Below are positions 50,746 through 62,610 of a stretch of 64,000 nucleotides of DNA, one piece after another; positions within the stretch are counted from its first letter, which is position 1, and each line of letters starts with the position of its first letter. Position numbers and translations under genes: made by a program. The stretch lies in NCBI GenBank assembly GCA_045646625.1, contig JAZRLB010000007.1:3369-67368 (forward strand), in the 5' to 3' direction. A model generated the notes under the pieces. That model was not told the origin of the DNA. It saw only the letters and a list, made by a program, of their open reading frames with translations, and made no database searches. The stretch is from Candidatus Enterousia sp. GTDB taxonomy: Bacteria; Pseudomonadota; Alphaproteobacteria; Rs-D84.

Positions 50746-50802
50746 ATGAAAATGTTTGGTTCTTTCTTTACTACAACAACTACAACCCCTTTGGGGGTGT
50801 AA
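50746..50802 (+). promoter_or_regulatory. thrS leader peptide MKMFGSFFTTTTTTPLGV*
   Basis: Six consecutive Thr codons upstream of thrS; TTGATT-17-TAATAT promoter immediately upstream. Confidence 0.85.
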
Positions 50803-50887
50803 TTTCTATTTGCGATAAATCGCACAATTTTTTAAAATTAAACAGTTAATCAGATATAAAAAAGTAAAATATAAAAAGGTTAGAATT

Positions 50888-52621
50888 ATGGCATATGATA
50901 TTGAATTAATGCGTCATTCATTAGCGCACGTTATGGCGGCGGCGGTAAAAAAACTGCACCCGGATGTTAAATTTGCGGGTGGGCCCGCAATTGAAAATGG
51001 GTTTTATTATGACTTTGATACAGAATATCGTTTTTCCGAAAATGATTTTGAAAAAATCGAAAAGGAAATGCGTGATTTGATTAAGTCTAATGGGCGTTTT
51101 GAACAGCGTAATGTGTCCCTGGATGAAGCAAAAGAAATCTTTGCAGATCAGCCATACAAAATGGAATGGTTGAATGAATATGATGCGGCTGGTGAAGCGC
51201 TGTCTGTCTATGCTTTCCGTGATTTTGTTGACCTGTGTCGTGGTCCACACGTTGAAAGTTCTAAGGATTTGCCGCGAGACAGTTTCAAAATTCGCAGTGT
51301 TGCAGGCGCATACTGGAAAGGGGATTCGAAAAATAAAATGTTGCAGCGTATCTATGTGGATGCGTTCGCAACTAAAGAAGAATTAGAACAGTTCTTGAAA
51401 ATGCAGGAAGAGGCTGCCGCACGAGATAATCGCAAATTGGGTAAAGATATGGATTTGTTCCATTTTGAACCAGAATATGCGCCGGGGTCTGTGTTCTGGC
51501 ACGACAAGGGATACAGAATGTATCGCAAGCTGATTGAATATGTGCGTCTGCGTCAGGAAATGGCGGGCTATCAGGAAATTTCAACACCTGCTGTTATGGA
51601 CAGGTGTTTGTGGGAAAGATCTGGTCACTGGGCAAAGTATGGCGAACATAACTATTCAGGTAAAACCCAGGATGGCAAAGTGTTCTGTATTAAGCCTATG
51701 TCGTGCCCAGGTGGGATGTTGGTGTTTGGGCACGGTCTGCGTTCTTATAAGGATTTGCCATTGTATATGGCTGAATTTGGTAAGGTTCATCGCTATGAAG
51801 CGGCCGGTGGTTTGTCTGGACTGATGCGTGTGCGTGAATTTACCCAGGACGATGCGCATATCTTTTGCACGGAAGAACAGTTGGAAGAAGAAGTTGTTAA
51901 GATTTTGCGTTTTATCAAAGATATTTATGGAAAATTCGGCTTTGATAAAATTACTATGAAATTGGCAACGCGTAAAGAATCAGAATTCCGTATTGGGTCT
52001 GACGAAATTTGGGACAAAGCCGAAGGCGCATTAAAGCACGCGCTGGATGCGAATGGTATTGAATACGAAATTGCCGAAGGTGATGCCGCGTTCTATGGTC
52101 CAAAGATTGATAACTATCTGCGTGATTCTATGGGACGCGTATGGCAATGCGGTACGGTGCAATTGGATATGAATTTGCCAGAACGTTTTGATTTGTCTTA
52201 TGTTGGCGAAGATGGTGAAAAGCATCGCCCGATTATGTTGCATCGCGCGATGTTGGGTTCGATTGAACGCTTTATGGGCGTATTGTTGGAATCAACAGGT
52301 GGTAATTTGCCGTTGTGGTTGAGTCCAGAACCGGTTGTTGTTGCGCCAATTTCACAAAAATACGCAGAATATGCGAATGAAATTGTGGCGGCTTTGCGAG
52401 CGTCGGGTATAAATGCACGGGCAGATTTGCGTGATGAAAAAGTAAACTATAAAATCCGCGAATTGTCTTTGGCAAAAACACCGATTATCGCGATTGTTGG
52501 AGAAAAAGAAATGGCAGAAAAAATGGTGACTCTGCGTCGTTTGGGTGTTGAAAAGCAGGAATCAATGCCAATGGCGGAATTTGTCGAAATGATGAAAGAT
52601 AGTGTCAAAATGCCGTTGTGA
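50888..52621 (+). CDS. thrS: Threonine--tRNA ligase lacking the N-terminal TGS domain
   Basis: RHSLAH, DLCRGPH, GAYW.G, KPM.CP, RVREFTQDD.H, AFYGPK, HRA..GS.ERF. Confidence 0.98.
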   Translation: MAYDIELMRHSLAHVMAAAVKKLHPDVKFAGGPAIENGFYYDFDTEYRFSENDFEKIEKEMRDLIKSNGRFEQRNVSLDEAKEIFADQPYKMEWLNEYDAAGEALSVYAFRDFVDLCRGPHVESSKDLPRDSFKIRSVAGAYWKGDSKNKMLQRIYVDAFATKEELEQFLKMQEEAAARDNRKLGKDMDLFHFEPEYAPGSVFWHDKGYRMYRKLIEYVRLRQEMAGYQEISTPAVMDRCLWERSGHWAKYGEHNYSGKTQDGKVFCIKPMSCPGGMLVFGHGLRSYKDLPLYMAEFGKVHRYEAAGGLSGLMRVREFTQDDAHIFCTEEQLEEEVVKILRFIKDIYGKFGFDKITMKLATRKESEFRIGSDEIWDKAEGALKHALDANGIEYEIAEGDAAFYGPKIDNYLRDSMGRVWQCGTVQLDMNLPERFDLSYVGEDGEKHRPIMLHRAMLGSIERFMGVLLESTGGNLPLWLSPEPVVVAPISQKYAEYANEIVAALRASGINARADLRDEKVNYKIRELSLAKTPIIAIVGEKEMAEKMVTLRRLGVEKQESMPMAEFVEMMKDSVKMPL

Positions 52622-52672
52622 TTTTGTTGGGGTGTGAAATTGCGCCCCAATAACAATTAAGGAGATGATAGA

Positions 52673-52816
52673 ATGAAAAAAAAATTGATGGTTATTGCGT
52701 TGCTGGTTGTGCCAGTTCTGGTGACGGGATGTGCAAAAAAGTGCGAGGTTGAACCAATTGTCGAACAAAATCATAAATTGATTGTGCCGCCAAATTTTGG
52801 AAATATGCCAAAGTAA
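52673..52816 (+). CDS. 47-aa small lipoprotein (MKKKLMVIALLVVPVLVTGCAKKCEVEPIVEQNHKLIVPPNFGNMPK)
   Basis: AAGGAG upstream, VTGC lipobox, LIVPP.F motif reminiscent of DUF3035. Confidence 0.7.
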   Translation: MKKKLMVIALLVVPVLVTGCAKKCEVEPIVEQNHKLIVPPNFGNMPK

Positions 52817-52893
52817 AAATTTATGCCAAAGCATTTTGTCTTTGGCTTTTTTTGTGATATAATGTTCACAATGAATAAGAGGGAGTTTTTATC

Positions 52894-53688
52894 ATGAACG
52901 ATGATAACAATTTGGATTTACTGGATTTAGATGACAACGGTGCAATGGACACTTTGCCAGAAGCGACGTCGTTCGCAGCACCAAGACCAAAAAAACCTTG
53001 GTTGTTGCTGAGTGTGGGATTGTTGGTAATCGTGTTGGCGACATATGTTATTATTCGTGCAATTGGTGATGATTCTGCGTCTTCGATAGAAGTGGATTTA
53101 GATGCACCGGTTGTTGTTGATGCAGGGGCAGGGCAACCAGTGCCAGTTGATATGAATGTTATGCCACCGGCACAACCTGCGCAGATTCAGCCGCAGCCAG
53201 TAGCACAGCCAGCGGCGCAACCGCAAGTTGTCGCACAGCCGGCGACACAGCCGCAAGTTGTCGCGCAGCCTGTGACGCAAACGGCGGGTGTGCCAGTGCG
53301 TGTTGTCGAAGAACGTCAAGAAGTAAAATTTAATCCTGCGGTGGAAGCAAAGCCTGCGGAAAAACCAAAAACTGTAACCGCAAAACCTGCAGCGAAAAAA
53401 ACGCCAACAAAGACAGCAAGTCAAACTGTGTCTAAGCCTGTGGTAGGTGCCTGGTATGTTCAGTTCGGTTCATACAGTACACGTGCGTTGGCGGAAAGCG
53501 CCCAGCGTCAGATTCAAAACGCACATAAGAGCTTGTTTGATGGACATCAGTTTGTTATTCTGGCAGCCCAGTTAAAGGATGGCAAGACGACATATCGTTT
53601 GCGTGTCGCGTTCAAGACGGCTGCAGATGCAAATGGTTTCTGTCGCAATGCTAAATCCGATGGGTTGGATTGCTATGTGGCGAAATAA
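52894..53688 (+). CDS. SPOR-domain (FtsN-like) membrane protein
   Basis: One TM, Q/P-rich repeats, WYVQFGSY....A, YRLRV.F.....A..FC. Confidence 0.88.
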   Translation: MNDDNNLDLLDLDDNGAMDTLPEATSFAAPRPKKPWLLLSVGLLVIVLATYVIIRAIGDDSASSIEVDLDAPVVVDAGAGQPVPVDMNVMPPAQPAQIQPQPVAQPAAQPQVVAQPATQPQVVAQPVTQTAGVPVRVVEERQEVKFNPAVEAKPAEKPKTVTAKPAAKKTPTKTASQTVSKPVVGAWYVQFGSYSTRALAESAQRQIQNAHKSLFDGHQFVILAAQLKDGKTTYRLRVAFKTAADANGFCRNAKSDGLDCYVAK

Positions 53689-53704
53689 TAAAAGGAGAAT
53701 CTGA

Positions 53705-53917
53705 ATGTTTGGACGTTTTGGATGGGCGGAAATACTGGTTATTGTCATTTTGTTGGTTATCTTGTTCGGGTCTAATAAGATTCCAGGAATGATGAAGAAT
53801 TTGGCAGATGGTTTGAATGTTTTTAAAAAAGAAGTTAAGAAAAGCACGCCAAAACAGGTGGAAAAAAAGCCTGTTAAAAAACAGGTGAAAAAAAAGATGC
53901 CAGTAAAAAAGAAATAA
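53705..53917 (+). CDS. tatA: Twin-arginine translocase TatA/E
   Basis: G..EIL.I....LFG..KIP....L..G...FKK. Confidence 0.92.
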   Translation: MFGRFGWAEILVIVILLVILFGSNKIPGMMKNLADGLNVFKKEVKKSTPKQVEKKPVKKQVKKKMPVKKK

Positions 53918-53942
53918 AAAAATCCCCAATCTTGGGGATTTT

Positions 53943-54304
53943 TTATCTGGCTTTTTTCTGATCCATTAAAAAACGAACTTGTTGCAGGCGGTTGCTTAAT
54001 TCGTCGGAATATACGATGATAGAGTTCAGAAAATTCATGGGTTCTGTGTCCAGCTGGACCATATCTGTTGCCGTAATTTTTAACGCAGGGTATGGATACA
54101 TACTGCTTTTAAAAACTTCGGGTTTTATGCCGTGTTGTTCAAAAATAAATTTGCAAATCTTAACGTATTTTTGGGGTTGTGGAATATGGTATCTGCATAG
54201 GATGCCGTTGTGGTCTTTGATGAAAGGGGGGCTTTGATGAGTTTTTTTAATAATTCGGCATCAGTCTTGGTTTATGAATTATACGAGTTTGTTTTGTATG
54301 GCAT
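53943..54304 (-). pseudogene. Disrupted orphan gene
   Basis: AAGGA plus ATG at 54304 hits TAA after 10 codons; a ~105-codon frame ending ...DQKKAR* lacks an N-terminal start. Confidence 0.45.
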
Positions 54305-54419
54305 CGAAAATCCTTTTTGGTAATTTGGGTTCCAAATACAGTACAAAAGAATAGGCTGTCAATGTTGAAATTAGCAGTTTTATGTTGAAAGTTTCTTTTT
54401 TTTGTACTAGAATTCACGC

Positions 54420-54600
54420 GTTGTGTTTAATTGTGTTGACGTGATTGACGACCACCGAGCAGGCGAACACAGATAAAGTTATAAATCAGGGTGGCACCGC
54501 GCGGCCAAATTGACCTGCGCCCCTGAAAACTAACAATTAAGAAAGGGTGCCGAAATTCCAATTTATGTTTTTCGTGCCCGAATTTGAAAAAAAAGGGACC
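54420..54600 (+). promoter_or_regulatory. T-box-like leader of aspS
   Basis: TCAGGG-TGGCACC-GCGC...GCGC-CCCTGA antiterminator at 54486-54526; promoter TTGAAA-17-TAGAAT at 54385-54413. Confidence 0.8.
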
Positions 54601-54603
54601 AAA

Positions 54604-56373
54604 ATGTTATCTTTGAAATCAAAGTACAGAACCCATACTTGTGGTGAATTAAATACATCAAATGTGGGCAACCGTGTTGTTTTGTCGGGGTGGGTGCATC
54701 GTAAACGTGACCATGGCTCGTTGATGTTTGTAGACCTGCGTGATAATTATGGTATTACCCAGGTGGTTTTTGATGGTGGAAATGAAGCACTGGAAAAAGT
54801 GCGCCCAGAATCCGTTATTAAAGTTGTTGGCAATGTTGTCGCACGTGATGCGAATGCTGTTAATGATAAAATTCCAACTGGTGGTATCGAAATTCAGGCG
54901 GAATCTTTTGAAGTTTTAACAAATGCAGATGTGCTGCCTTTCCAGGTGTTCGGCGATGATGATTCTGTGGCCGAGGATTTGCGTTTGAAATATCGCTATA
55001 TTGATTTGAGACGCGAAAGTCTGCACAAGAATATTTTGTTCCGTAATCGCGTTATGAAATTTCTGCGCGATAAAATGTGGGATATGGGATTTTCAGAATT
55101 CCAGACACCAATTTTGACTGCGTCATCACCAGAAGGTGCGCGTGACTTTATCGTGCCAAGTCGTAATCATCACGGTATGTTCTATGCCTTGCCACAGGCG
55201 CCACAGCAGTTTAAGCAGTTTATTCAGATTTCTGGGTTTGATAGATATTTCCAGATTGCGCCTTGTTTCCGTGACGAAGATTTGCGTGCGGACAGATTGT
55301 TAGAATTCTATCAGTTGGATTTGGAAATGTCGTTTGTGGACCTGCCAGATATTCAGGCGGTGGGTAATAAATTAATGCCAGAAATGATTCGCGAATTTGT
55401 GCCAGGTGCAAAAATATGCGAAGAAATTCCACATATTCCATTCGATGAAGCAATGCTGAAATATGGTTCGGATAAACCAGATTTGCGTAATCCGATTATC
55501 ATTTCTGATGTGACTGAAATTTTCCGTGGGTCTGATTTTGGTATCTTTGCGAATGCGGTTGAAAATGGCAGCGTCGTTCGCGCAATTCCGGCACCAAATT
55601 CGGCGGATAAACCACGTTCTTGGTTTGATAAACTGGGGGAATTTGCAGTCAAAGAATTAGGACTGGGTGGTTTGGGATACATCGTGTTTGCAGATGAGGC
55701 CAAAGGACCTGTTGCAAAAAAATTGGATTCGGAACATATCGCAAAGTTGCGTGAAATCGCAGGTGATAATTCATCATTGTTCTTTGTTTGTGACGAAGTA
55801 AATGCCGCCGCCAAGGCAGCTGGTAAATTGCGTAACAAGTTGGGTGATGATTTAGGGTTGATTGATCCAAAGGAATTCCGTTTCTGTTGGATAGAAGAAT
55901 TTCCGTTCTTTGAAGCGGACGAAGAATCACCAACAGGTATCGCGTTTACGCATAATCCGTTCTCGTTCCCGATGGCAACGTTGGAAGAACTGAATACTAA
56001 AAATCCATTGGAAATCAAAGCGGCGCAGTTCGATATGGTGTTGAATGGCGCAGAAATCTGCAGTGGTGGTTTGCGCAACTTTAACCCAGAAGTTATGTTG
56101 AAATGCTTTGATATCACCGGGTACAGTGAAGAAGTTGTAAAAGAAAAATTTGGTGGTATGTATACTGCATTCCAATATGGTGCGCCACCACACGGTGGTT
56201 GTGCGTTTGGGTTGGATCGACTGGTTCAGATTATGTTGGATGAACCAAACCTGCGCCAGGTTGTGATATTCCCAACGAATCAGCGTGGTCAGGACTTGAT
56301 GATGGGGGCGCCGACAACTGTGACTGAAAAACAGTTGCGCGAAGTACACATTCAGGTGCGCAAGAAAAACTAA
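54604..56373 (+). CDS. aspS: Aspartate--tRNA ligase, probably non-discriminating
   Basis: YRTHTCGEL, RDHG (His of ND-AspRS), PEGARDF, LPQAPQQFKQ, GAPPHGG.A.GLDR. Confidence 0.98.
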   Translation: MLSLKSKYRTHTCGELNTSNVGNRVVLSGWVHRKRDHGSLMFVDLRDNYGITQVVFDGGNEALEKVRPESVIKVVGNVVARDANAVNDKIPTGGIEIQAESFEVLTNADVLPFQVFGDDDSVAEDLRLKYRYIDLRRESLHKNILFRNRVMKFLRDKMWDMGFSEFQTPILTASSPEGARDFIVPSRNHHGMFYALPQAPQQFKQFIQISGFDRYFQIAPCFRDEDLRADRLLEFYQLDLEMSFVDLPDIQAVGNKLMPEMIREFVPGAKICEEIPHIPFDEAMLKYGSDKPDLRNPIIISDVTEIFRGSDFGIFANAVENGSVVRAIPAPNSADKPRSWFDKLGEFAVKELGLGGLGYIVFADEAKGPVAKKLDSEHIAKLREIAGDNSSLFFVCDEVNAAAKAAGKLRNKLGDDLGLIDPKEFRFCWIEEFPFFEADEESPTGIAFTHNPFSFPMATLEELNTKNPLEIKAAQFDMVLNGAEICSGGLRNFNPEVMLKCFDITGYSEEVVKEKFGGMYTAFQYGAPPHGGCAFGLDRLVQIMLDEPNLRQVVIFPTNQRGQDLMMGAPTTVTEKQLREVHIQVRKKN

Positions 56374-56469
56374 ACAAAGTTCCCGCTGAAAGGCGGGATT
56401 TTTTATGATACGATATGAATAAAATTGTTATTGCAAAAAATTGTTAGAGGGTTATAATTGGCGGTGCAT

Positions 56470-56543
56470 TGGGGTGTCGTCTAATGGTAGGACAAGAGAT
56501 TTTGGTTCTCTTTATCATGGTTCGAATCCGTGCGCCCCAACCA
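56470..56543 (+). tRNA. tRNA-Gln(TTG)
   Basis: U1-A72 stem, TTTTGGT loop, TTCGAAT, CCA. Confidence 0.92.
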
Positions 56544-56930
56544 AATTCAAAAACACCCCAGATGGGGTGTTTTTTAATTTGCTATACGTCACGGATTGTG
56601 CAAACTGTTTAATTTCGTTTGCACGGCAAAACATTATCAATGTTTTGTACGTGTTTCGGCAAATCACAGATTTCCCAAAACACTAGTGGGGGGCATCCCC
56701 ACACCCCTGTGTGCGCCCCAACCAATATTCAAACGCCCCGTTTGGGGCGTTTTAACATTGGTATATGTACGGATTGCACAAATATTTTCATATATTTGTG
56801 CAGCAAAACATTATCAATGTTTTGTACGTGTTTCGGCAAATCACAGATTTCCAAAACACTAGTGGGGGCATCCCCACACCCCTGTGTGCGCGACCGACCA
56901 ATATTCAAACGCCCCATTTGGGGCGTTTGA
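56530..56930 (+). repeat. ~180-bp tandem repeats each ending in a tRNA-Gln 3'-end copy plus a terminator
   Basis: GTGCGCCCCAACCAA at 56530 and 56711, degenerate at 56886; internal blocks nearly identical. Confidence 0.88.
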
Positions 56931-56944
56931 TTGTTTTTACAGAT

Positions 56945-59900
56945 TTAAAATTCATATCTGAATTTTATGCGGCCTGTTTGGGATGTGTAATCTGTGCGGG
57001 ATTCGATGTCATAGTTTAATGACATATTGAATGCCCCGTACATCATACCAATTTCAAGACCAACTTCGTTCGCAATGCGTGATAAGTGTTCGCCGTCCAG
57101 GGTGTATGCGCTGATGCCGGGCATTGAGACCGTTATATGATTGTCATCTGATATCAGGTCGTACTTTAATGCATAGTGTATTCCGGGACGAACAACCCAG
57201 CCGTTATTCAATAACAGGTCAAATCCATAGCGTGTGCTAAGGGATGCTGTCATGTAATCTGTGCCGTCAATTTTGCTGCGTATGCCTAATGAATTGGTGT
57301 AGTCTGCAGAACCTATGTGCAGATATTGCACGGATAATTCAGGACTGATTCCGCCAAGAAACTCATAGCCGATTGTGGCGGCCGCACCAAATGAATTCAG
57401 GTCATAATCCCCGGATACATAAATGCCTAAGGCGTCGCCTTTTTCTGTATAGTCGGACATTGTGTAATTTACAATGGCGTTCATATACCAGTTATTGGGT
57501 TTGTATTGCCCATAGACAAAGAGCGAGTGTGAGTCAATATCGGTATTACGGGCAATGGCACCAATATCTGAATGAGCGTACATATATCCCATACCCAATG
57601 TCCAAGTGTCGTTTACTGTGCCATCAAAACCAACCGATATGCCACGGGTATAGCCGTTAAAACTGTCGTTCAGTTTTGATTTGTTGTATAGGCCTTGGGT
57701 CCAGAAGCCGCCAAGGTCAATTGTTTCGTCGCCGCCGTTGCGCCCTATGTCAAATCCATTCAGACGGTTGTATGCCAATAACTGCATGGTGTTTTGGGTG
57801 CTGGCGCTGATGGAATGATTAACTGGCGATAATTCTGGATTGATTGCGCGGGTGGCGTGTTCAACCGCTTCGCGACCAGTCTGGGTGCTGTCGGACAGAC
57901 TTTCCTGCATTAATAATGACAGGTCATTTAGGCGCGTGGATGATGCCATGGATACGTTTGAAACTGTGCGTGCAGCATCGTTTGATATGTTATTTTGTGT
58001 GGCAATATCTTCGACAGATTTCAGACTTGCAGTGACGTCCCCACTGTTCCAAGTTAGGTCATAGACAGAACTGGTGATGTCGGTGTTGGTGAATATTTGA
58101 TTGCCGAAAACTTTATATGTGCCCGCCGAATCAAATGACAGTTTTATTGTGCCGTCGCCTGTAAAGCCGTCTGTGTTTTCTACGTTAATTTGGGCGGTGT
58201 TGCCGGTGCGCAGTACAGCAAGCAGGGTGCCGTCCAATTTTACTGCACCTTGGGAAATTGTGGCGGTACCAATGTTCAATGTGCTGCCAGATGCAATGTT
58301 TAATGTTCCAGTGCCTGTGACGCCGCCGGTCATCGTTGTGTCGCCATTCAGATTTACTGTACCATCGTTATGGATGTCGTTTGCAAGGCCGTTTGCGGTG
58401 TTGCCAGAAAATGTTGCGTTGCCATTAAACGTGATTGTATCATTGTTATAGATTGCGCCACCTTGGCCACTTGCGTGGTTGTTTGCAAATGTTGTGTTGC
58501 CGTTAAACGTTATGTCGGACGTGCCGCCATCGCCAGATGTGGCATTCCAAATTGCGCCACCGTCCAAAGTTGCGGTGTTGTTGCGGAATGCGCTGGTGCC
58601 ATTGATTGTGACGGATGAGTCTTGATCTGCGCCGTCAAATGCACGCGACACGATTGCACCGCCGTATGCGCTGGATGTGTTGTTTGCAAATGTGTTTGTG
58701 CTGGCGGATGTGCCAATTGTCAGTGTCGTAGTATTGGTGTTGCCACGATTGTGAATTGCGCCGCCGCCACTTTTGGTTGTGCCTGTATCGGATGCGGTAT
58801 TGCCGGTAAATGTATTTGTTTGGGATGTGATATTCAGATCGCCTGCATTAAAGATTGCACCGCCATAGCCCGCGCTGGATTTGTTGTTTGTAAATGATAC
58901 GGATGATGCCGTCATTGTGATTTCGCCGCCGTTATCTAATGCGCCAGCCGTACTGGTGGTTTGATTGTTATCAAATAAAACGCGACCATATGTTGCAATT
59001 GATACAGCACCTGCGTTTTTAAGTCCGCCGCCATTGCTGCCTGTGTTATTTGTAAAAATAAAGTCGCCGCCAGTGCCATTAATTGTGCCTGAGTTTACCA
59101 ATGCGCCGTTTAGTGGGTTTGTGTTTTTGTCAAATGTGACGCCGTTTGCAAATGAAACAGTGCCGGTTGTGTCGTTGTTTAACAATGTGCCTGTGCCTGT
59201 GTTTTCTGAAAAGACTGCGCTGTCCATAAATGTCAGGTTGCTGGTCGGTTTATCAATGAATATGGCTGCGCCAGAGCCTGCGGCATTGTTTGTGAATGTT
59301 GCGGATTTTGTAAAACTGACATCGCCGCCCAGGATTGACATTGCGCCGCCACTTGTTGTGGCACTGTTGCCAGTAAAGGTTGTGTTGTCGTTAAATGTTA
59401 TGTCGTCTGCCGCCAGTATTGCGCCACCACGATGCGAAGATGAATTGTTGGTAAAGTTTGCTGTACTATCAAATACGATTGTGCCACCGCGATGATTTAT
59501 TGCACCGCCGCCGGAAAATACGCTGTTGTTTGATGTGCCATTAGCTGTGTTGTTTGCAAATGTTGTTGCGCCAATGAATTGAATGTCTGGGGATGAATAT
59601 GTGCCATTTCCATAATTAAATATAGCGCCACCGCCGTTTGGATTGTTTGTGCCGTTGGATGTAAATATTGCGTCGCCATTAAATACTGTTTTGCCACCAA
59701 CTGTAAAGTCGTCGCCAGTCACAGATGATAGCCAGCCATTTCCAATAACGCCACCCATACCACCGTTATTCAGGCTGTTGCTATTGAAAGTGCTGGTGCC
59801 GTCAAATGTTAGGGTTGTGTTCGGAACGTTTTCCATATAAAAAACACCACCATTATTTGCGGTTGTTGATGTGATGTTGGATGCTGTCAGGTCTGTGTAA

Positions 59901-60007
59901 ATTGTGTTTTCTGTGATAACTTGGCGTGTGGTGATGGTGTCTGCAAGTGCAGGCATAATCAACAGGGCAGGTAATACAGATATGCCCATCAGGATATTAT
60001 GTTTCAT
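56945..60007 (-). CDS. Autotransporter with Pmp-like GGA(I)/FxxN repeat passenger
   Basis: Signal peptide, many F..N.....GGAI repeats, C-terminal beta-barrel ending FRYEF. Confidence 0.9.
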   Translation of the reverse strand: MKHNILMGISVLPALLIMPALADTITTRQVITENTIYTDLTASNITSTTANNGGVFYMENVPNTTLTFDGTSTFNSNSLNNGGMGGVIGNGWLSSVTGDDFTVGGKTVFNGDAIFTSNGTNNPNGGGAIFNYGNGTYSSPDIQFIGATTFANNTANGTSNNSVFSGGGAINHRGGTIVFDSTANFTNNSSSHRGGAILAADDITFNDNTTFTGNSATTSGGAMSILGGDVSFTKSATFTNNAAGSGAAIFIDKPTSNLTFMDSAVFSENTGTGTLLNNDTTGTVSFANGVTFDKNTNPLNGALVNSGTINGTGGDFIFTNNTGSNGGGLKNAGAVSIATYGRVLFDNNQTTSTAGALDNGGEITMTASSVSFTNNKSSAGYGGAIFNAGDLNITSQTNTFTGNTASDTGTTKSGGGAIHNRGNTNTTTLTIGTSASTNTFANNTSSAYGGAIVSRAFDGADQDSSVTINGTSAFRNNTATLDGGAIWNATSGDGGTSDITFNGNTTFANNHASGQGGAIYNNDTITFNGNATFSGNTANGLANDIHNDGTVNLNGDTTMTGGVTGTGTLNIASGSTLNIGTATISQGAVKLDGTLLAVLRTGNTAQINVENTDGFTGDGTIKLSFDSAGTYKVFGNQIFTNTDITSSVYDLTWNSGDVTASLKSVEDIATQNNISNDAARTVSNVSMASSTRLNDLSLLMQESLSDSTQTGREAVEHATRAINPELSPVNHSISASTQNTMQLLAYNRLNGFDIGRNGGDETIDLGGFWTQGLYNKSKLNDSFNGYTRGISVGFDGTVNDTWTLGMGYMYAHSDIGAIARNTDIDSHSLFVYGQYKPNNWYMNAIVNYTMSDYTEKGDALGIYVSGDYDLNSFGAAATIGYEFLGGISPELSVQYLHIGSADYTNSLGIRSKIDGTDYMTASLSTRYGFDLLLNNGWVVRPGIHYALKYDLISDDNHITVSMPGISAYTLDGEHLSRIANEVGLEIGMMYGAFNMSLNYDIESRTDYTSQTGRIKFRYEF

Positions 60008-60105
60008 TTGTTTTCCTTTTTTGGTTTGCTGTATAAAAAGGTATACAATGAAAATAATTAAAAATAACTAGGTGTGTTTTCTTGGGAAAAAACGCCAATT
60101 GTGGT

Positions 60106-60849
60106 TTACTTTGTTGCGTAATATAGTTTGGAATATTCGTATAATACGTCGGTCATCAGGCCGCGGTATCCGTTTTTGTTCCAAAAGCGTTCGGCCATAT
60201 ACATAGATGGTTTGAAATCGCAAAAATCAACCGCGTCCCAATCTATGAATCCGATAATGTTAAGGTCGTTGTCCATTAAAAAATTTTGGCCAATGTCATT
60301 GTGAAACCAGCCGTATAAGTAGTCAGGTTTAGCGTTTTTGGTTTTTTTGAATTCACGTATTGCCGTTGGGTCAACACGTCCGATTTCAAACATAAATTGT
60401 GCCAACTGGGATGCCAATTTTTTGCGGTGTGACATAATAAAGCCAGGGGGAAAATCACATAATAATTTGCCTGATATAAATTCATATCGACGAATAGTCG
60501 TGCCGTTCCAATTTATAATTTCCATTTCTGGAATTTTGAAAGATGTATGTTTGCGCAACGTGTTGCATATACTTAATTCGCGTCGATAGTCGCCCGAGTT
60601 AGTTGTCAAAGAAAATTTGAATACGTGCGCGTTGTTTAATATTACAATCAGGTTTTGACAGCCTATGCCAAAATTAATAGATATTTTTTTTGCACCACCA
60701 CAGTTTGTATCAGCCCAGTTTTGGACAAACTTGATATATTTTCGTGCACAGGGATTGTTTAACATTACGCGGACACTGCGACGGGCTTTGTCCCCGGGGA
60801 TAAAGCCGCATACAATGTTTGCTAAAAATTTGCGAAGCGCACCAGCCAT
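60106..60849 (-). CDS. Aminoglycoside phosphotransferase/choline kinase-fold protein
   Basis: VFKF, HNDI..NFL, GFIDWD kinase motifs. Confidence 0.75.
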   Translation of the reverse strand: MAGALRKFLANIVCGFIPGDKARRSVRVMLNNPCARKYIKFVQNWADTNCGGAKKISINFGIGCQNLIVILNNAHVFKFSLTTNSGDYRRELSICNTLRKHTSFKIPEMEIINWNGTTIRRYEFISGKLLCDFPPGFIMSHRKKLASQLAQFMFEIGRVDPTAIREFKKTKNAKPDYLYGWFHNDIGQNFLMDNDLNIIGFIDWDAVDFCDFKPSMYMAERFWNKNGYRGLMTDVLYEYSKLYYATK

Positions 60850-60951
60850 TACGAAGATTATCCTAGGAAATAAAAAAAGTGGGCGCAAGAGAAAACTTTC
60901 ATTTGAAATATATTGACTTTGTGTATATGATATATGGCACAGATATGTTTT

Positions 60952-61026
60952 GCCCCCATCGTCTAGCGGTTAGGACATCAGATTCTCATTCTGGCAACAC
61001 GGGTTCGATTCCCGTTGGGGGTGCCA
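60952..61026 (+). tRNA. tRNA-Glu(CTC)
   Basis: GCCCCCA/TGGGGGT stem, TTCTCAT loop, TTCGATT, CCA. Confidence 0.92.
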
Positions 61027-61081
61027 AGTTTATGTTAAAGTATAAAATAAAAATCCTGCTGAAAAGCAGGATTTTTGTTTG

Positions 61082-62359
61082 TTAGTGTTTCCCGCCGATT
61101 TTTGTTCGATTGCCCATTAATGGCTGTAATTTCTTTGGAATATTTACCGAGCCGTCTGGGTTTTGGTGGTTTTCAATTACAGGCACAATTGCGCGGGGCA
61201 GGGCAATACCTGTGTTATTTAATGTTGCACAGAACTGTAATGTGCCGTCTGTGGCGCGGTAACGGGTGTTCGTACGACGTGCTTGGAATTGACCAATCGA
61301 TGAACAAGACCCCAGTTCGCGATATGTGCCTTCGCTTGGGAACCAGGCTTCGACATCGTGCATTTTTACTTTGTTAAAACCCATGTCGCCCGTGCAGGCT
61401 GCAATGACACGGTATGGTAATTCTAAATCTTCCATAATTTCGCACAGGTTGTTCAATAAATGTTCGTGCATTTCGTCCGACTGTTCAGGTGTGCAATAGA
61501 TGTATTGTTCAACCTTGTTAAATTGATGTATACGCACGATTCCGCGGGTGTCACGCCCTGCCGCCCCAGCTTCTTTGCGGAAACAAGGTGAATAGCCTGC
61601 GTATTTAATTGGCAAATCTTTTTCATTCAAAACTTCATCAGAATGTAAAGAATTCAAAACGATTTCTGCTGTCCCTGCCAAACATCTATCTGTATCAGTC
61701 AACATGAACACATCATTGTTCATGACCGACAAATCCGACCCCATAAAGTGCCCCGCATTAAAGATTGTTTGTGGTTTTGTAATTGCTGGACAGTTCACAA
61801 ATGTAAAGCCCTTGCTGATTAATTTCTGTAACACATATGTCTGAATTGCCAATTCTAATTCGGCAGCTTCACCAAACAAAGCGTATGTACGCGCACCACA
61901 AATTGATGCAATTTTATCATTCTTCCACCAACCATTCATTTCCAACAATTCCCATTGTGGACGTGGTGTAAAGTCAAATTCACGTGGTGTGCCAACGCGC
62001 CGCACCTCTACATTTTCTGTATCATCCTTGCCAACTGGTGCATCTGCAGATGGCACCTGCGGTACACGCAACAGCAAATCATGCAACAAATCTTCCTTTT
62101 CGGCCAACTCTGCCAATTCCGCAGCAATTTCAGCTGCAATTTCTTTACTGCGCGCAATCAATGGCGCTTTGTCTGTTGCAGTTGGTATTTCCCGTGTGAT
62201 TTTATTTTTCTCAGCGGTCTTGGATTGTGTAACCGTTTTCAATTCACGCACACGCACATCCAAAGACAGAATTTCATCAACCTTGTCTTCATAGCCCTTT
62301 AATTCACATGCCTTTTTAACAGCATCTGGATTTTCACGAATAAATTTCATATCCAACAT
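61082..62359 (-). CDS. serS: Serine--tRNA ligase
   Basis: MLD.K.IR, LAGTAE, CFRKEAG.AGRDTRG..R.HQF.KVE, E..SCS, TLN.T. Confidence 0.97.
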   Translation of the reverse strand: MLDMKFIRENPDAVKKACELKGYEDKVDEILSLDVRVRELKTVTQSKTAEKNKITREIPTATDKAPLIARSKEIAAEIAAELAELAEKEDLLHDLLLRVPQVPSADAPVGKDDTENVEVRRVGTPREFDFTPRPQWELLEMNGWWKNDKIASICGARTYALFGEAAELELAIQTYVLQKLISKGFTFVNCPAITKPQTIFNAGHFMGSDLSVMNNDVFMLTDTDRCLAGTAEIVLNSLHSDEVLNEKDLPIKYAGYSPCFRKEAGAAGRDTRGIVRIHQFNKVEQYIYCTPEQSDEMHEHLLNNLCEIMEDLELPYRVIAACTGDMGFNKVKMHDVEAWFPSEGTYRELGSCSSIGQFQARRTNTRYRATDGTLQFCATLNNTGIALPRAIVPVIENHQNPDGSVNIPKKLQPLMGNRTKIGGKH

Positions 62360-62439
62360 AGTATTCTACCTTTTTGATTTATTTGGATTATATCTTAGAA
62401 CAGTTTATATTTCTTGTAAAGAAAATGAATACGCAAAAA

Positions 62440-62493
62440 CTATACCCCCAACGGGGATGAAGAACGACTAAAAAACACAAATTTCATATTCAT
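62440..62493 (-). promoter_or_regulatory. serS leader peptide MNMKFVFFSRSSSPLGV*
   Basis: Ser codons AGT, TCT, TCA, TCC clustered upstream of serS; TTGAAT-17-TATAAT promoter 9 nt before the ATG. Confidence 0.8.
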
Positions 62494-62610
62494 AACACCC
62501 CAATTATAAAACATTTTTCAAACACATTCAAGATATTCCGATTTTATTTGCATAATATTCTTATGTTGTGTATGCTATGCCCGAATAATAAAGGGAAAGG
62601 TATTACTGTT

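Follow-up and report, generated by a model that had tools for sequence, protein, structure and literature searches.

The window examined here is a 64,000-nucleotide stretch of DNA (positions 3369-67368 of contig C7) from G000, a metagenome-assembled genome (MAG) of the uncultured gut bacterium Candidatus Enterousia (Alphaproteobacteria) that comprises 956 kb in 20 contigs and is 97% complete. NCBIfam equivalogs name three aminoacyl-tRNA synthetase (aaRS) genes within it, thrS, aspS and serS, and both thrS and serS were found to be preceded by a short leader open reading frame (ORF) in which codons for the synthetase's own amino acid run up to, and into, a terminator-like hairpin. NCBI places the genus among the Alphaproteobacteria incertae sedis, and the available text of a published study puts Enterousia in the GTDB order Rs-D84 and describes Rs-D84/Enterousia genomes as smaller than 1 Mb and without amino-acid, nucleotide or lipid biosynthesis (PMC12306168). 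Because amino-acid biosynthesis is lacking in this group, its aaRS genes would be natural targets of control by charged tRNA.

The thrS leader lies on the + strand. Its promoter (referred to as P1; 50710-50738) consists of TTGATT, a 17-nt spacer and TAATAT, and 7 nt separate the –10 box from the ATG of the leader ORF MKMFGSFFTTTTTTPLGV* (50746-50802, ATG to TAA), which has no Shine-Dalgarno sequence and is presumably leaderless. Six Thr control codons (ACT ACA ACA ACT ACA ACC, 50770-50787) lead up to a hairpin inside the ORF, ACCCC-TTT-GGGGGT (referred to as H1; 50785-50798), which encodes 'PLG', holds the last control codon in its 5′ arm and was scored as terminator-like by a terminator scan (–10.5 kcal/mol). 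The TAA stop codon (50800-50802) and a U-rich tail, GTAATTTCTATT, follow (50799-50810). Next to these, the scan revealed a second promoter (P2; TTGCGA-17-TAAAAT, 50810-50838) and a second hairpin in the –35/spacer region of P2 (H2; TGCGA-TAAA-TCGCA, 50811-50824), followed by thrS itself, which encodes a threonine--tRNA ligase of 577 amino acids (aa) (50888-52621; TIGR00418, 686 bits vs a cut-off of 384).

The serS leader lies on the – strand. Here P1 (TTGAAT-17-TATAAT, 62503-62531; 10/12 matches) has its –10 box ending 9 nt before the ATG of the leader ORF MNMKFVFFSRSSSPLGV* (62440-62493), the Ser control codons are AGT (CGT) TCT TCA TCC (62455-62469), with TCA TCC being invariant among relatives, and H1 reads ATCCCC-GTT-GGGGGT, followed by ATAGTTTTTG (62444-62458; terminator-like by the same scan, –7.7 kcal/mol). 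A P2-like promoter (TTTACA-17-TAAGAT, 62392-62420; 9/12 matches) separates the leader from serS, encoding a serine--tRNA ligase of 425 aa (61082-62359; TIGR00414, 413.5 bits vs a cut-off of 302). Both leader ORFs have exactly the coordinates and peptides that an earlier note on this DNA, made from the sequence alone, had given them, and the –10 boxes, at 7 and 9 nt from the ATG, stand within the 7-9 nt that it had claimed.

The conservation of the thrS leader was examined in 40 fetched relatives, 30 loci of which were kept. In 25 of these 30 loci thrS is preceded by a Thr-rich leader that closes with CCCC-loop-GGGG(G), namely in all 22 genus loci with upstream DNA and in three loci (L025-L027) from two other families, with 4-8 Thr residues per leader. 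The 22 leave aside L008, which begins within the gene, and L024, which is a split gene, and the Thr leader was missing at all three thrS loci of family f3, whose ThrRS is of the long form. As to the enzyme itself, the 577-aa ThrRS begins at the editing domain, as the genus and some sister families lack the N-terminal TGS domain; the long form of family f3, without Thr leader, measures 640-660 aa.

For serS, 80 loci were compared, and close relatives of the window's serS come from public MAGs of the gut of ruminants, horses and humans. In 36 of the 80, serS is preceded by a leader of the form ..FFS.SSSP.G.*, and many of the remaining loci have a co-oriented trxB ahead of the gene or are arranged differently. 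The M-x-M start that the earlier note had counted among the shared features did not hold up in the leader peptide lists of relatives, where it is not conserved. G000 also carries a second serS (C19:109312-110397; L117), cut by the contig end, with a Ser leader of its own, MKKAFVFFSSSSSPLGE*. Its product is 87% identical to the SerS of the window over 305 aa and it has the same divergent trxB-like neighbour; this copy has arisen by paralogous duplication or else belongs to a second strain whose DNA was binned into the MAG.

To see how widely the arrangement occurs, 121 genomes of the order Rs-D84 were searched with a strict motif, WCAWCCCC-N3-4-GGGG-N1-3-TAR, with the reversed pattern as control. 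The motif yielded 104 matches in 76 of the 121 genomes, with no more than three per genome, and the reversed control none. The matches fell into classes of 75 ACAACCCC, 28 TCATCCCC and 1 TCAACCCC, and genomes with the motif numbered 72/91 in family f1, 1/2 in f5, 2/3 in f6, 0/4 in f2, 0/19 in f3 and 0/1 in f4; G000 was the only one with three matches. When 30 of the matches were fetched as loci and their neighbours checked, 28 were located 74-286 nt upstream of a ThrRS gene (ACA ACC type) or a SerRS gene (TCA TCC type), one of the other two lying 44 nt from a contig end and the other being an ordinary gene-end terminator. The codon type agreed with the downstream synthetase in all 28 matches that have a synthetase gene, and codon identity therefore tracks synthetase identity wherever this can be judged. 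In this respect the earlier note's view of a reusable, near-leaderless cassette whose sensor codons follow the synthetase was borne out, and the design recurs at hisS, at trpS and at the ileS of a family f6 genome (L172), all described below.

The hairpin that closes these leaders is of a kind that is common in G000. Counting both strands, the genome contains 134 C4-6/N3-5/G4-6 hairpins, 113 of which have at least six T in the following 12 nt, typically as GGGGG-ATTTTT, and 61 of which lie no more than 80 nt past the 3′ end of an ORF that is 100 aa or longer. A C/G hairpin of this type is the standard intrinsic terminator of G000. As a side observation, this terminator is highly standardised (CCCCC-N4-GGGGG-ATTTTT), and many copies read as terminators in both directions (e.g. 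C7:47621 and C7:44791). H1 of both the thrS and the serS leader was flagged by the terminator scan and has the same shape as the genomic terminator hairpins, with the U-tract broken by the stop codon; the corresponding hairpins of the second serS leader and of the hisS leader had fold energies of –8.4 and –9.4 kcal/mol. The 3′ ends of the two leaders read GGGGGT-GTAA-TTTCTATTT and GGGGGT-ATAG-TTTTTG, and because the stop codon is inserted between the stem and the U-run, the U-tract is weaker than in the real terminators. Nevertheless, the T fraction in the 14 nt past the leader hairpins amounted to 0.44-0.56 (mean of 0.56 over 25 thrS leaders) vs 0.286 for the genome, and that in the 15 nt before the control codons to 0.59-0.63. 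The particular string CCCC.TTGGGG occurs five times in G000, three times in leaders (thrS, serS and the serS on contig C19) and twice in gene-end terminators.

RNAalifold analysis of 22 genus thrS leaders predicted H1 as the sole helix, with five pairs of which none covaries: the arms ACCCC/GGGGU are invariant, and the loops vary (TTT, GTT, CGC, TGC, TCT, TGT or CAA). Because the arms are fixed and the loop is free, the encoded tail residues change, giving PLGV, PAGV, PVGVR, PKGVR and PCGG in thrS leaders and PLGE, PFGE, PVGE, PYGD and PFGVRI in serS leaders. In L025 and L026 the stop codon even falls inside the loop (CCCC-TTAA-GGGG and CCCC-GTAA-GGGG), so that the ORF ends after P. Judged from these alignments, the constraint is on the RNA and not on the peptide, and PLGV is just the translation of a C4-5/loop/G4-5 hairpin. 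The earlier note had described a hairpin encoding PLGV* at the end of both ORFs; the hairpin does end both, and PLGV is not conserved as a peptide. Its further suggestion that PLGV, or PLG, might be a nascent-peptide arrest motif at the leader end draws on the frequency of P-L-G among the closest relatives, but it is contradicted by the freely varying loop codon and the stops within the loop, by tail residues that simply follow the hairpin (PAGV, PVGVR, PKGVR, PCGG, PLGE, PFGE, PVGE, PYGD) and by the other hairpins and peptides of the hisS and trpS leaders, and we find it barely credible.

Other pairings were considered and discarded. In the thrS leader the FF tract could pair with the Thr codons, but such a helix is not general, the Ser codons not being complementary to the FF tract. 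Pairing of the 3′ arm of H1 with a downstream C-rich segment, which would make an antiterminator, found no complement by eye and none by RNAalifold. A 9-bp helix between the 5′ AUG region of the serS leader and the sequence after H1 was put down to chance (mean of –3.8 kcal/mol over 36 leaders vs –3.6 kcal/mol with shuffled 5′ ends).

Promoter geometry was conserved along with the hairpin. In most of 129 leaders across six genes, the –10 box of a sigma-70-like promoter ends 6-10 nt before the ATG. More specifically, the –10 box of P1 ends 7 nt from the ATG in 13 of 25 thrS leaders and 9-10 nt from it in 35 of 36 serS leaders, and the spacer measures 17 nt in 23 of the 25 thrS leaders and in 58 of the 61 thrS and serS leaders together; the geometry at hisS, ileS, cysS and trpS is similar. 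Because the promoter occupies the position of a Shine-Dalgarno sequence and leaves no room for one, the leader ORFs should be leaderless or nearly so.

P2 is also retained. In thrS relatives it takes the form TTGCNN-N16/17-TATAAT, its spacing being kept though the sequence between the boxes changes, and in serS relatives a promoter of the TTTACA or TTGCGA type was seen by eye at the P2 position. At hisS, the leader stop codon TAG was found by eye to lie within TTAGCA, the –35 box of a TG-extended TATAAT promoter. H2, which overlaps P2 of thrS, forms in 20 of 22 thrS sequences with compensatory pair types (G-C in 17 vs A-U in 3 and, at the next position, C-G in 9, G-C in 8 and A-U in 4). Its stem occurs as GCGA/UCGC, GCGG/CCGC, GCGC/GCGC, GCAC/GUGC and GUGC/GCAC, and in most relatives no U-run follows it.

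The remaining synthetase genes of G000 were located by nine Pfam searches, which gave 19 aaRS loci whose upstream regions were then read and checked in relatives. Cognate-codon leader ORFs were present at nine of these 19 loci (thrS, two serS, ileS, hisS, cysS, trpS, lysS and metG), and none was seen by eye upstream of valS, leuS, glyS, tyrS, alaS, proS, gltX, argS and pheS in G000. Together the nine leader ORFs contain 28 cognate residues, a number that shuffles of leaders over genes reached in 0 of 100,000 trials. The scan of aaRS upstream regions that the earlier note had proposed thus returned matching codon runs at nine loci and left nine genes without a leader by eye. A regulon-like set of aaRS leaders is real, although the earlier wording of leaders on all aaRS genes was overstated: a cognate leader of any kind is found at 9/19 loci and the CCCC.TTGGGG type at three loci only.

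Two of the additional leaders resemble those of thrS and serS in that the control codons adjoin or overlap the hairpin. The hisS leader (..FHHA.AGEY*; 19/30 loci, all in the genus) has CAT CAC abutting GCCCG/CGGGC, for which the compensatory variants GCCAC/GTGGC and GCTG/CAGC occur, and in the trpS leader (..CWR[IV]AA*; ~10/23 genus loci) the hairpin overlaps the Trp codon (TGG-CGC..GCC). The ileS leader of L172 in family f6 likewise has the H1 design, with ..EIIFRIPVWGN* encoded over ATC-CCC-GTT-TGG-GGA. When G000 was scanned further for short leaderless ORFs that have a hairpin at their stop codon, the matches beyond thrS, the two serS and trpS looked like noise.

In the genus, by comparison, the ileS leader (MKQTTIIIIK*; starting with ATG in 23 of 24 genus loci and with GTG in the 24th) has alternative helices, consisting of a hairpin CACUGC/GCGGUG, an antiterminator GCGCUUUGGC/GCUGGGGCGC and a terminator GGGCGC/GCGCCC-U5. 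The antiterminator is mutually exclusive with the terminator form, and homologues fold into either. The cysS leader (MTIRFINFYCC[RC]*; 19/21 genus loci) is followed by GCAAAC/GTTTGC, the lysS leader (..K[RK][FS][FL].*; 22/22 readable loci, by eye) by a conserved helix and a terminator, and the metG leader (11/24 loci) is a 5-7-codon ORF starting MRM, followed by AACGGG/CCCGUU and a terminator. The ileS, cysS, lysS and metG leaders all end in clear intrinsic terminators, and those of ileS, lysS and metG have alternative helices, unlike the thrS and serS leaders.

Some details of these loci deserve mention in their own right. At lysS (L116 / L298-L319), a conserved GUGCGACCA ... CGG(G/A)CGCAC lies between leader ORF and terminator, where GUGCG can pair with the CGCAC that overlaps the 5′ arm of the terminator, which looks like an antiterminator. 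At metG (L115 / L321-L343), the mini-ORF reads ATG CGA ATG .. (MRMxx*), with one internal Met codon, and the AACGGG that follows is the complement of CCCGUU, which forms the loop of the terminator GACGCC/GGCGUC; this element directly follows a tRNA gene, and not a promoter, in several genomes. Upstream of tyrS (contig C9 of G000), a three-codon ORF ATG AAA CAT TAG (MKH*) starts 8 nt after a –10 box and its stop codon overlaps the tyrS Shine-Dalgarno sequence (TAGGGG). As it contains no Tyr codon, this could be a leaderless mini-ORF of a general kind rather than a sensor of amino acids. A would-be leader MTAFFKF* in the rplT-pheS terminator was dismissed, as it is probably a by-product of the T-run.

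Taken together, the thrS and serS leaders probably act in cis as leader-peptide attenuators, with a single terminator inside the ORF, through which the two synthetase genes are expressed according to how much charged tRNA-Thr or tRNA-Ser is available. In this scheme, P1 would start transcription at, or no more than ~3 nt from, the ATG of a 16-20-codon ORF, in which U-rich hydrophobic codons are followed by two to seven cognate codons, the last of them (ACC or TCC) lying within the 5′ arm of the C4-5/G4-5 hairpin, with the stop codon and the U-rich tail 2-5 nt past that hairpin. By default, H1 would end the P1 transcripts just before a constitutive P2, which would supply basal synthetase expression. 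When cognate charged tRNA is scarce, the ribosome would dwell on the control codons with the 5′ arm in its mRNA channel, so that no terminator could form and P1 transcripts would read through; when it is ample, the ribosome would reach the stop codon beyond the hairpin and leave, and the terminator would fold. The control codons lie 0-9 nt from the hairpin in independent leaders (thrS, serS, hisS, trpS and the f6 ileS), and a stalled ribosome would therefore hold the 5′ arm in its mRNA channel. It is attenuation as a whole that we consider probable; masking as such we rate lower. What the sequences show directly is the layout of the leaders and its conservation, the agreement of control codons with the synthetase, the identity of H1 with the terminator hairpins of the genome and the spacing of the promoters; translation of the ORF, termination at H1, the sense of the response and masking are inferred.

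Several points weigh against this reading. The leader U-tract is degenerate (GTGTAATTTCTATTT or ATAGTTTTTG) vs the ATTTTT of the genome's real terminators, and termination at H1 may be weak. Neither an antiterminator nor a set of 2:3 and 3:4 helices was predicted by RNAalifold in the 22 thrS leaders, which agrees with the remark in the earlier note that no classical attenuator is evident. The conserved, covarying H2 is given no role by this model, and with a conserved P2 downstream of the leader only part of the synthetase transcription would be regulated. A more serious difficulty is one of space and timing. In the expressome, ~31-34 nt separate the ribosomal A/P site from the active site of the polymerase. 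By our own reasoning, when the polymerase is at the release zone of H1 (7-10 nt past the stem), the A site would then have got no further than the second of the Thr codons in thrS or the first of the Ser codons in serS, and by the same geometry the control codons of hisS and trpS could not occupy the A site at all. Because of this steric limit, masking would need polymerase pausing, which is not demonstrable here, and a ribosome that merely lagged behind would raise termination and so reverse the response. For the ileS leader, too, this geometric reasoning gives the 'wrong' direction, and the geometry may be too rigid. As to how these leaders act, the best reading would still seem to be the one proposed in the earlier note, in which the stalled ribosome itself occludes the hairpin, with the steric and timing difficulty attached to it.

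The same geometry can be turned into a different explanation. In pyrBI and pyrE of Escherichia coli, a single terminator hairpin is overlapped or closely followed by the leader ORF, and the ribosome serves as the antiterminator. These operons differ from the present leaders in that they sense UTP via polymerase pausing and in that their read-through needs tight coupling, with an opposite response to hungry codons. If read-through at thrS and serS depended on coupling in this way, only a ribosome directly behind the polymerase would block H1, hungry codons would raise termination at H1 and thereby relieve the occlusion of P2 ('terminate-to-activate'), and homeostasis would come from the tandem promoters, termination falling 5-15 nt before P2. 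The A site of a collided ribosome lies ~31 nt behind the RNA 3′ end and the distance from the control codons to the downstream H1 is 0-18 nt, P2 is conserved immediately past the leader at thrS, serS and hisS, and the ileS geometry gives the same direction, as region 1 is covered only when the ribosome has reached the Lys or stop codon. On the other hand, P1 read-through transcripts still carry the synthetase gene and its Shine-Dalgarno sequence, a contribution that interference would need to exceed, induction on starvation is the rule for every characterised amino-acid attenuator and T-box, the one on aspS described below included, and the most conserved control codons adjoin the hairpin, which suits masking better than lagging. 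We regard coupling-dependent read-through as unlikely.

In its strongest form this explanation would make the whole cassette a terminate-to-activate switch, in which termination at H1, 5-15 nt before the –35 box of P2, frees P2 as the real synthetase promoter. As a stalled ribosome would be sterically unable to act on a polymerase at H1, hungry codons would uncouple the ribosome and raise termination. If true, it is promoter occlusion, not read-through, that would convey the amino-acid signal, but we deem this, too, rather improbable.

The steric and timing conflict disappears if termination depends on Rho. In that case the leader RNA vacated by the ribosome would load Rho and a stalled ribosome would cover the site, as in tnaC, with Rho terminating a polymerase paused downstream at H1, at the U-rich tail or at H2, so that H1 and H2 would both obtain a role as pause hairpins. 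G000 does encode rho (TIGR00767, 653 bits vs a cut-off of 509), and the stretch covered by the stalled ribosome is C-rich and G-free (in thrS, ~30 nt with 11 C and 0 G). Such a C-rich tract is far shorter than typical rut sites, however, and the RNA downstream is A/U-rich and C-poor. Moreover, H1 is indistinguishable from the 134 intrinsic-terminator hairpins of the genome, and clear intrinsic terminators end the ileS, cysS, lysS and metG leaders in the same genomes. Rho-dependent attenuation is accordingly held to be quite unlikely.

A post-transcriptional role, in which a ribosome stalled near the 5′ end would stabilise the mRNA or unmask the synthetase ribosome-binding site, has a precedent in leaderless polycysteine ORFs of mycobacteria (10.1101/834739) and draws on the minimum free energy fold of the whole thrS leader, which pairs the U-rich FF tract with the region of the thrS Shine-Dalgarno sequence. 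Yet this fold is no better than those of shuffled sequences (z of –0.9; 34/200 as good), the serS fold shows no such pairing, and a terminator-type hairpin would be left unexplained. The synthetase start also lies 74-92 nt past the leader, and P2 transcripts are without the leader, which makes a post-transcriptional role less likely still. We judge it very unlikely and retain leader-peptide attenuation as the favoured reading of the thrS and serS leaders.

The third synthetase gene of the window appears to be controlled by another kind of leader. aspS (54604-56373 on the + strand, in a frame of 54547-56373; NF001750, 745 bits) encodes an aspartate--tRNA ligase, its likely start being the ATG at 54604 by N-terminal alignment with relatives. 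The earlier note had listed here a 17-codon Asp-rich upstream ORF, which turned out to overlap a T-box-like leader (54342-54527, +) that gives a full-length but weak match to Rfam RF00230 (22.9 bits, E of 0.0038). A T-box core, GGGTGGCACCGCG, which aligns to the T-box/antiterminator part of the model, is present upstream of aspS in 25/25 genus loci and in the sister-family loci L265 and L266, and the sister-family leaders match RF00230 with 41.1-45.8 bits (E of 3e-7 to 5e-6); all these scores (22.9-45.8 bits) are far below the Rfam gathering score of 93. Read by eye, the specifier loop carries GAC in most loci and AAC in L239, L248, L262, L263 and L265, with GAC GAC in the presumed loop of the window. 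A PF00152 search revealed no asnS, matching only aspS and a lysS-like gene, and GAC and AAC loops in a genome without a detected asnS would suit a non-discriminating AspRS. By its sequence features, the aspS leader is best described as a divergent T-box and not as a leader peptide. Two further conserved segments, GGGTGCCGAAA and GCGCCC, follow the antiterminator and hint at a relay leading to the ribosome-binding site of aspS. The interval between aspS and serS contains a gene for a 1020-aa protein (56945-60007, –) with an autotransporter beta-barrel and a polymorphic-outer-membrane-protein repeat.

If attenuation holds, about half of the synthetase loci in a genome of less than 1 Mb without amino-acid biosynthesis appear to sense charged tRNA, through nine leader ORFs and one T-box. 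The parts would be economical, namely a promoter set right against the ATG, a handful of cognate codons and a stock terminator hairpin, and at ~60 nt and one helix the thrS/serS form would be about the smallest conceivable amino-acid attenuator. Given the coupled spacing of ribosome and polymerase, it would also offer a clean case for studying ribosome control of a single terminator within an ORF, and the leaders may supply compact, swappable amino-acid sensors. The set would amount to a 'ribulon' found in nature, in which each amino acid has a sensor of its own. Such leaders are absent from Rfam, no family of which reached its gathering score over them (the best permissive hit, with an E of 0.75, was to an unrelated small RNA), and gene callers would miss such short ORFs.

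Control of synthetase genes by leader peptides has precedents. The resemblance to the E. coli trp, his and thr operons and to pheST with its leader pheM lies in an upstream ORF with cognate codons, an intrinsic terminator before the gene and the ribosome as sensor, and it extends to the targets, as leader-peptide attenuation of synthetase genes is established or predicted for pheST in gamma-proteobacteria and for trpS and leuS in Streptomyces (PMC1262725). Unlike these classical attenuators, the thrS and serS leaders are without 1:2, 2:3 and 3:4 helices, the sole conserved helix up to the stop codon lying inside the ORF, the ORF is presumably leaderless, and a second promoter follows the leader. 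The aspS leader resembles T-box riboswitches in its core AGGGUGGCACCGCG with a UGGC bulge, in its full-length Rfam match and in a presumed specifier loop reading GAC or AAC; it differs in a Stem I that is reduced in the genus and in its alphaproteobacterial host. A literature search combining T-box riboswitch and Alphaproteobacteria returned no paper on such a leader, as judged by titles.

Closer relatives are found among small translated leaders. In Caulobacter crescentus, which belongs to the same taxonomic class (Alphaproteobacteria), small translated leader coding sequences precede trpS and ileS, and for ilvBN pausing that blocks a terminator hairpin is described, a masking model in the same terms as that considered here for thrS and serS (PMC4117421). 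The trpL of Sinorhizobium meliloti is a leaderless small ORF (sORF) within an attenuator, which differs in having classical alternative helices and in controlling a biosynthetic gene (PMC10117765). The mycobacterial polycysteine sORFs ('ribulon') are likewise several leaderless sensory ORFs of one design, at which stalled ribosomes block an RNA structure and which respond collectively; there, the structure sequesters a ribosome-binding site and one amino acid is sensed, whereas here a terminator-type hairpin is involved and each leader has its own amino acid (10.1101/834739).

The closest parallel is offered by Streptomyces lividans TK24, in which leaderless cognate-codon sORFs (thrL, trpL2, leuL2 and alaL) lie directly upstream of thrS, trpS, leuS and alaS, and for thrL the authors note a single hairpin that lacks a U-run (PMC8079986). 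Compared as peptides only, ..ETTPGF.. of thrL resembles the ..TTPLG.. found here and ..LWRAA* of trpL2 resembles ..CWRIAA*, a hint that the 'codons-into-hairpin' design may go far back or have arisen by convergence. The S. lividans leaders differ in phylum and base composition and in having been found by RNA-seq, and the accessible text reports neither a standard cassette shared between genes nor a second promoter downstream (PMC8079986). The 'new system' of the earlier note is thus not new as a class, aaRS leader-peptide attenuators, leaderless ones included, having already been published (PMC8079986, PMC4117421, PMC1262725). Our literature searches, within the text accessible for each source, found no description of such leaders in Enterousia. 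What is new here is the lineage, the number of loci in one small genome and the use of a stock terminator inside the ORF as a Thr/Ser cassette, along with the apparent absence of an antiterminator helix and the conserved putative promoter immediately downstream.

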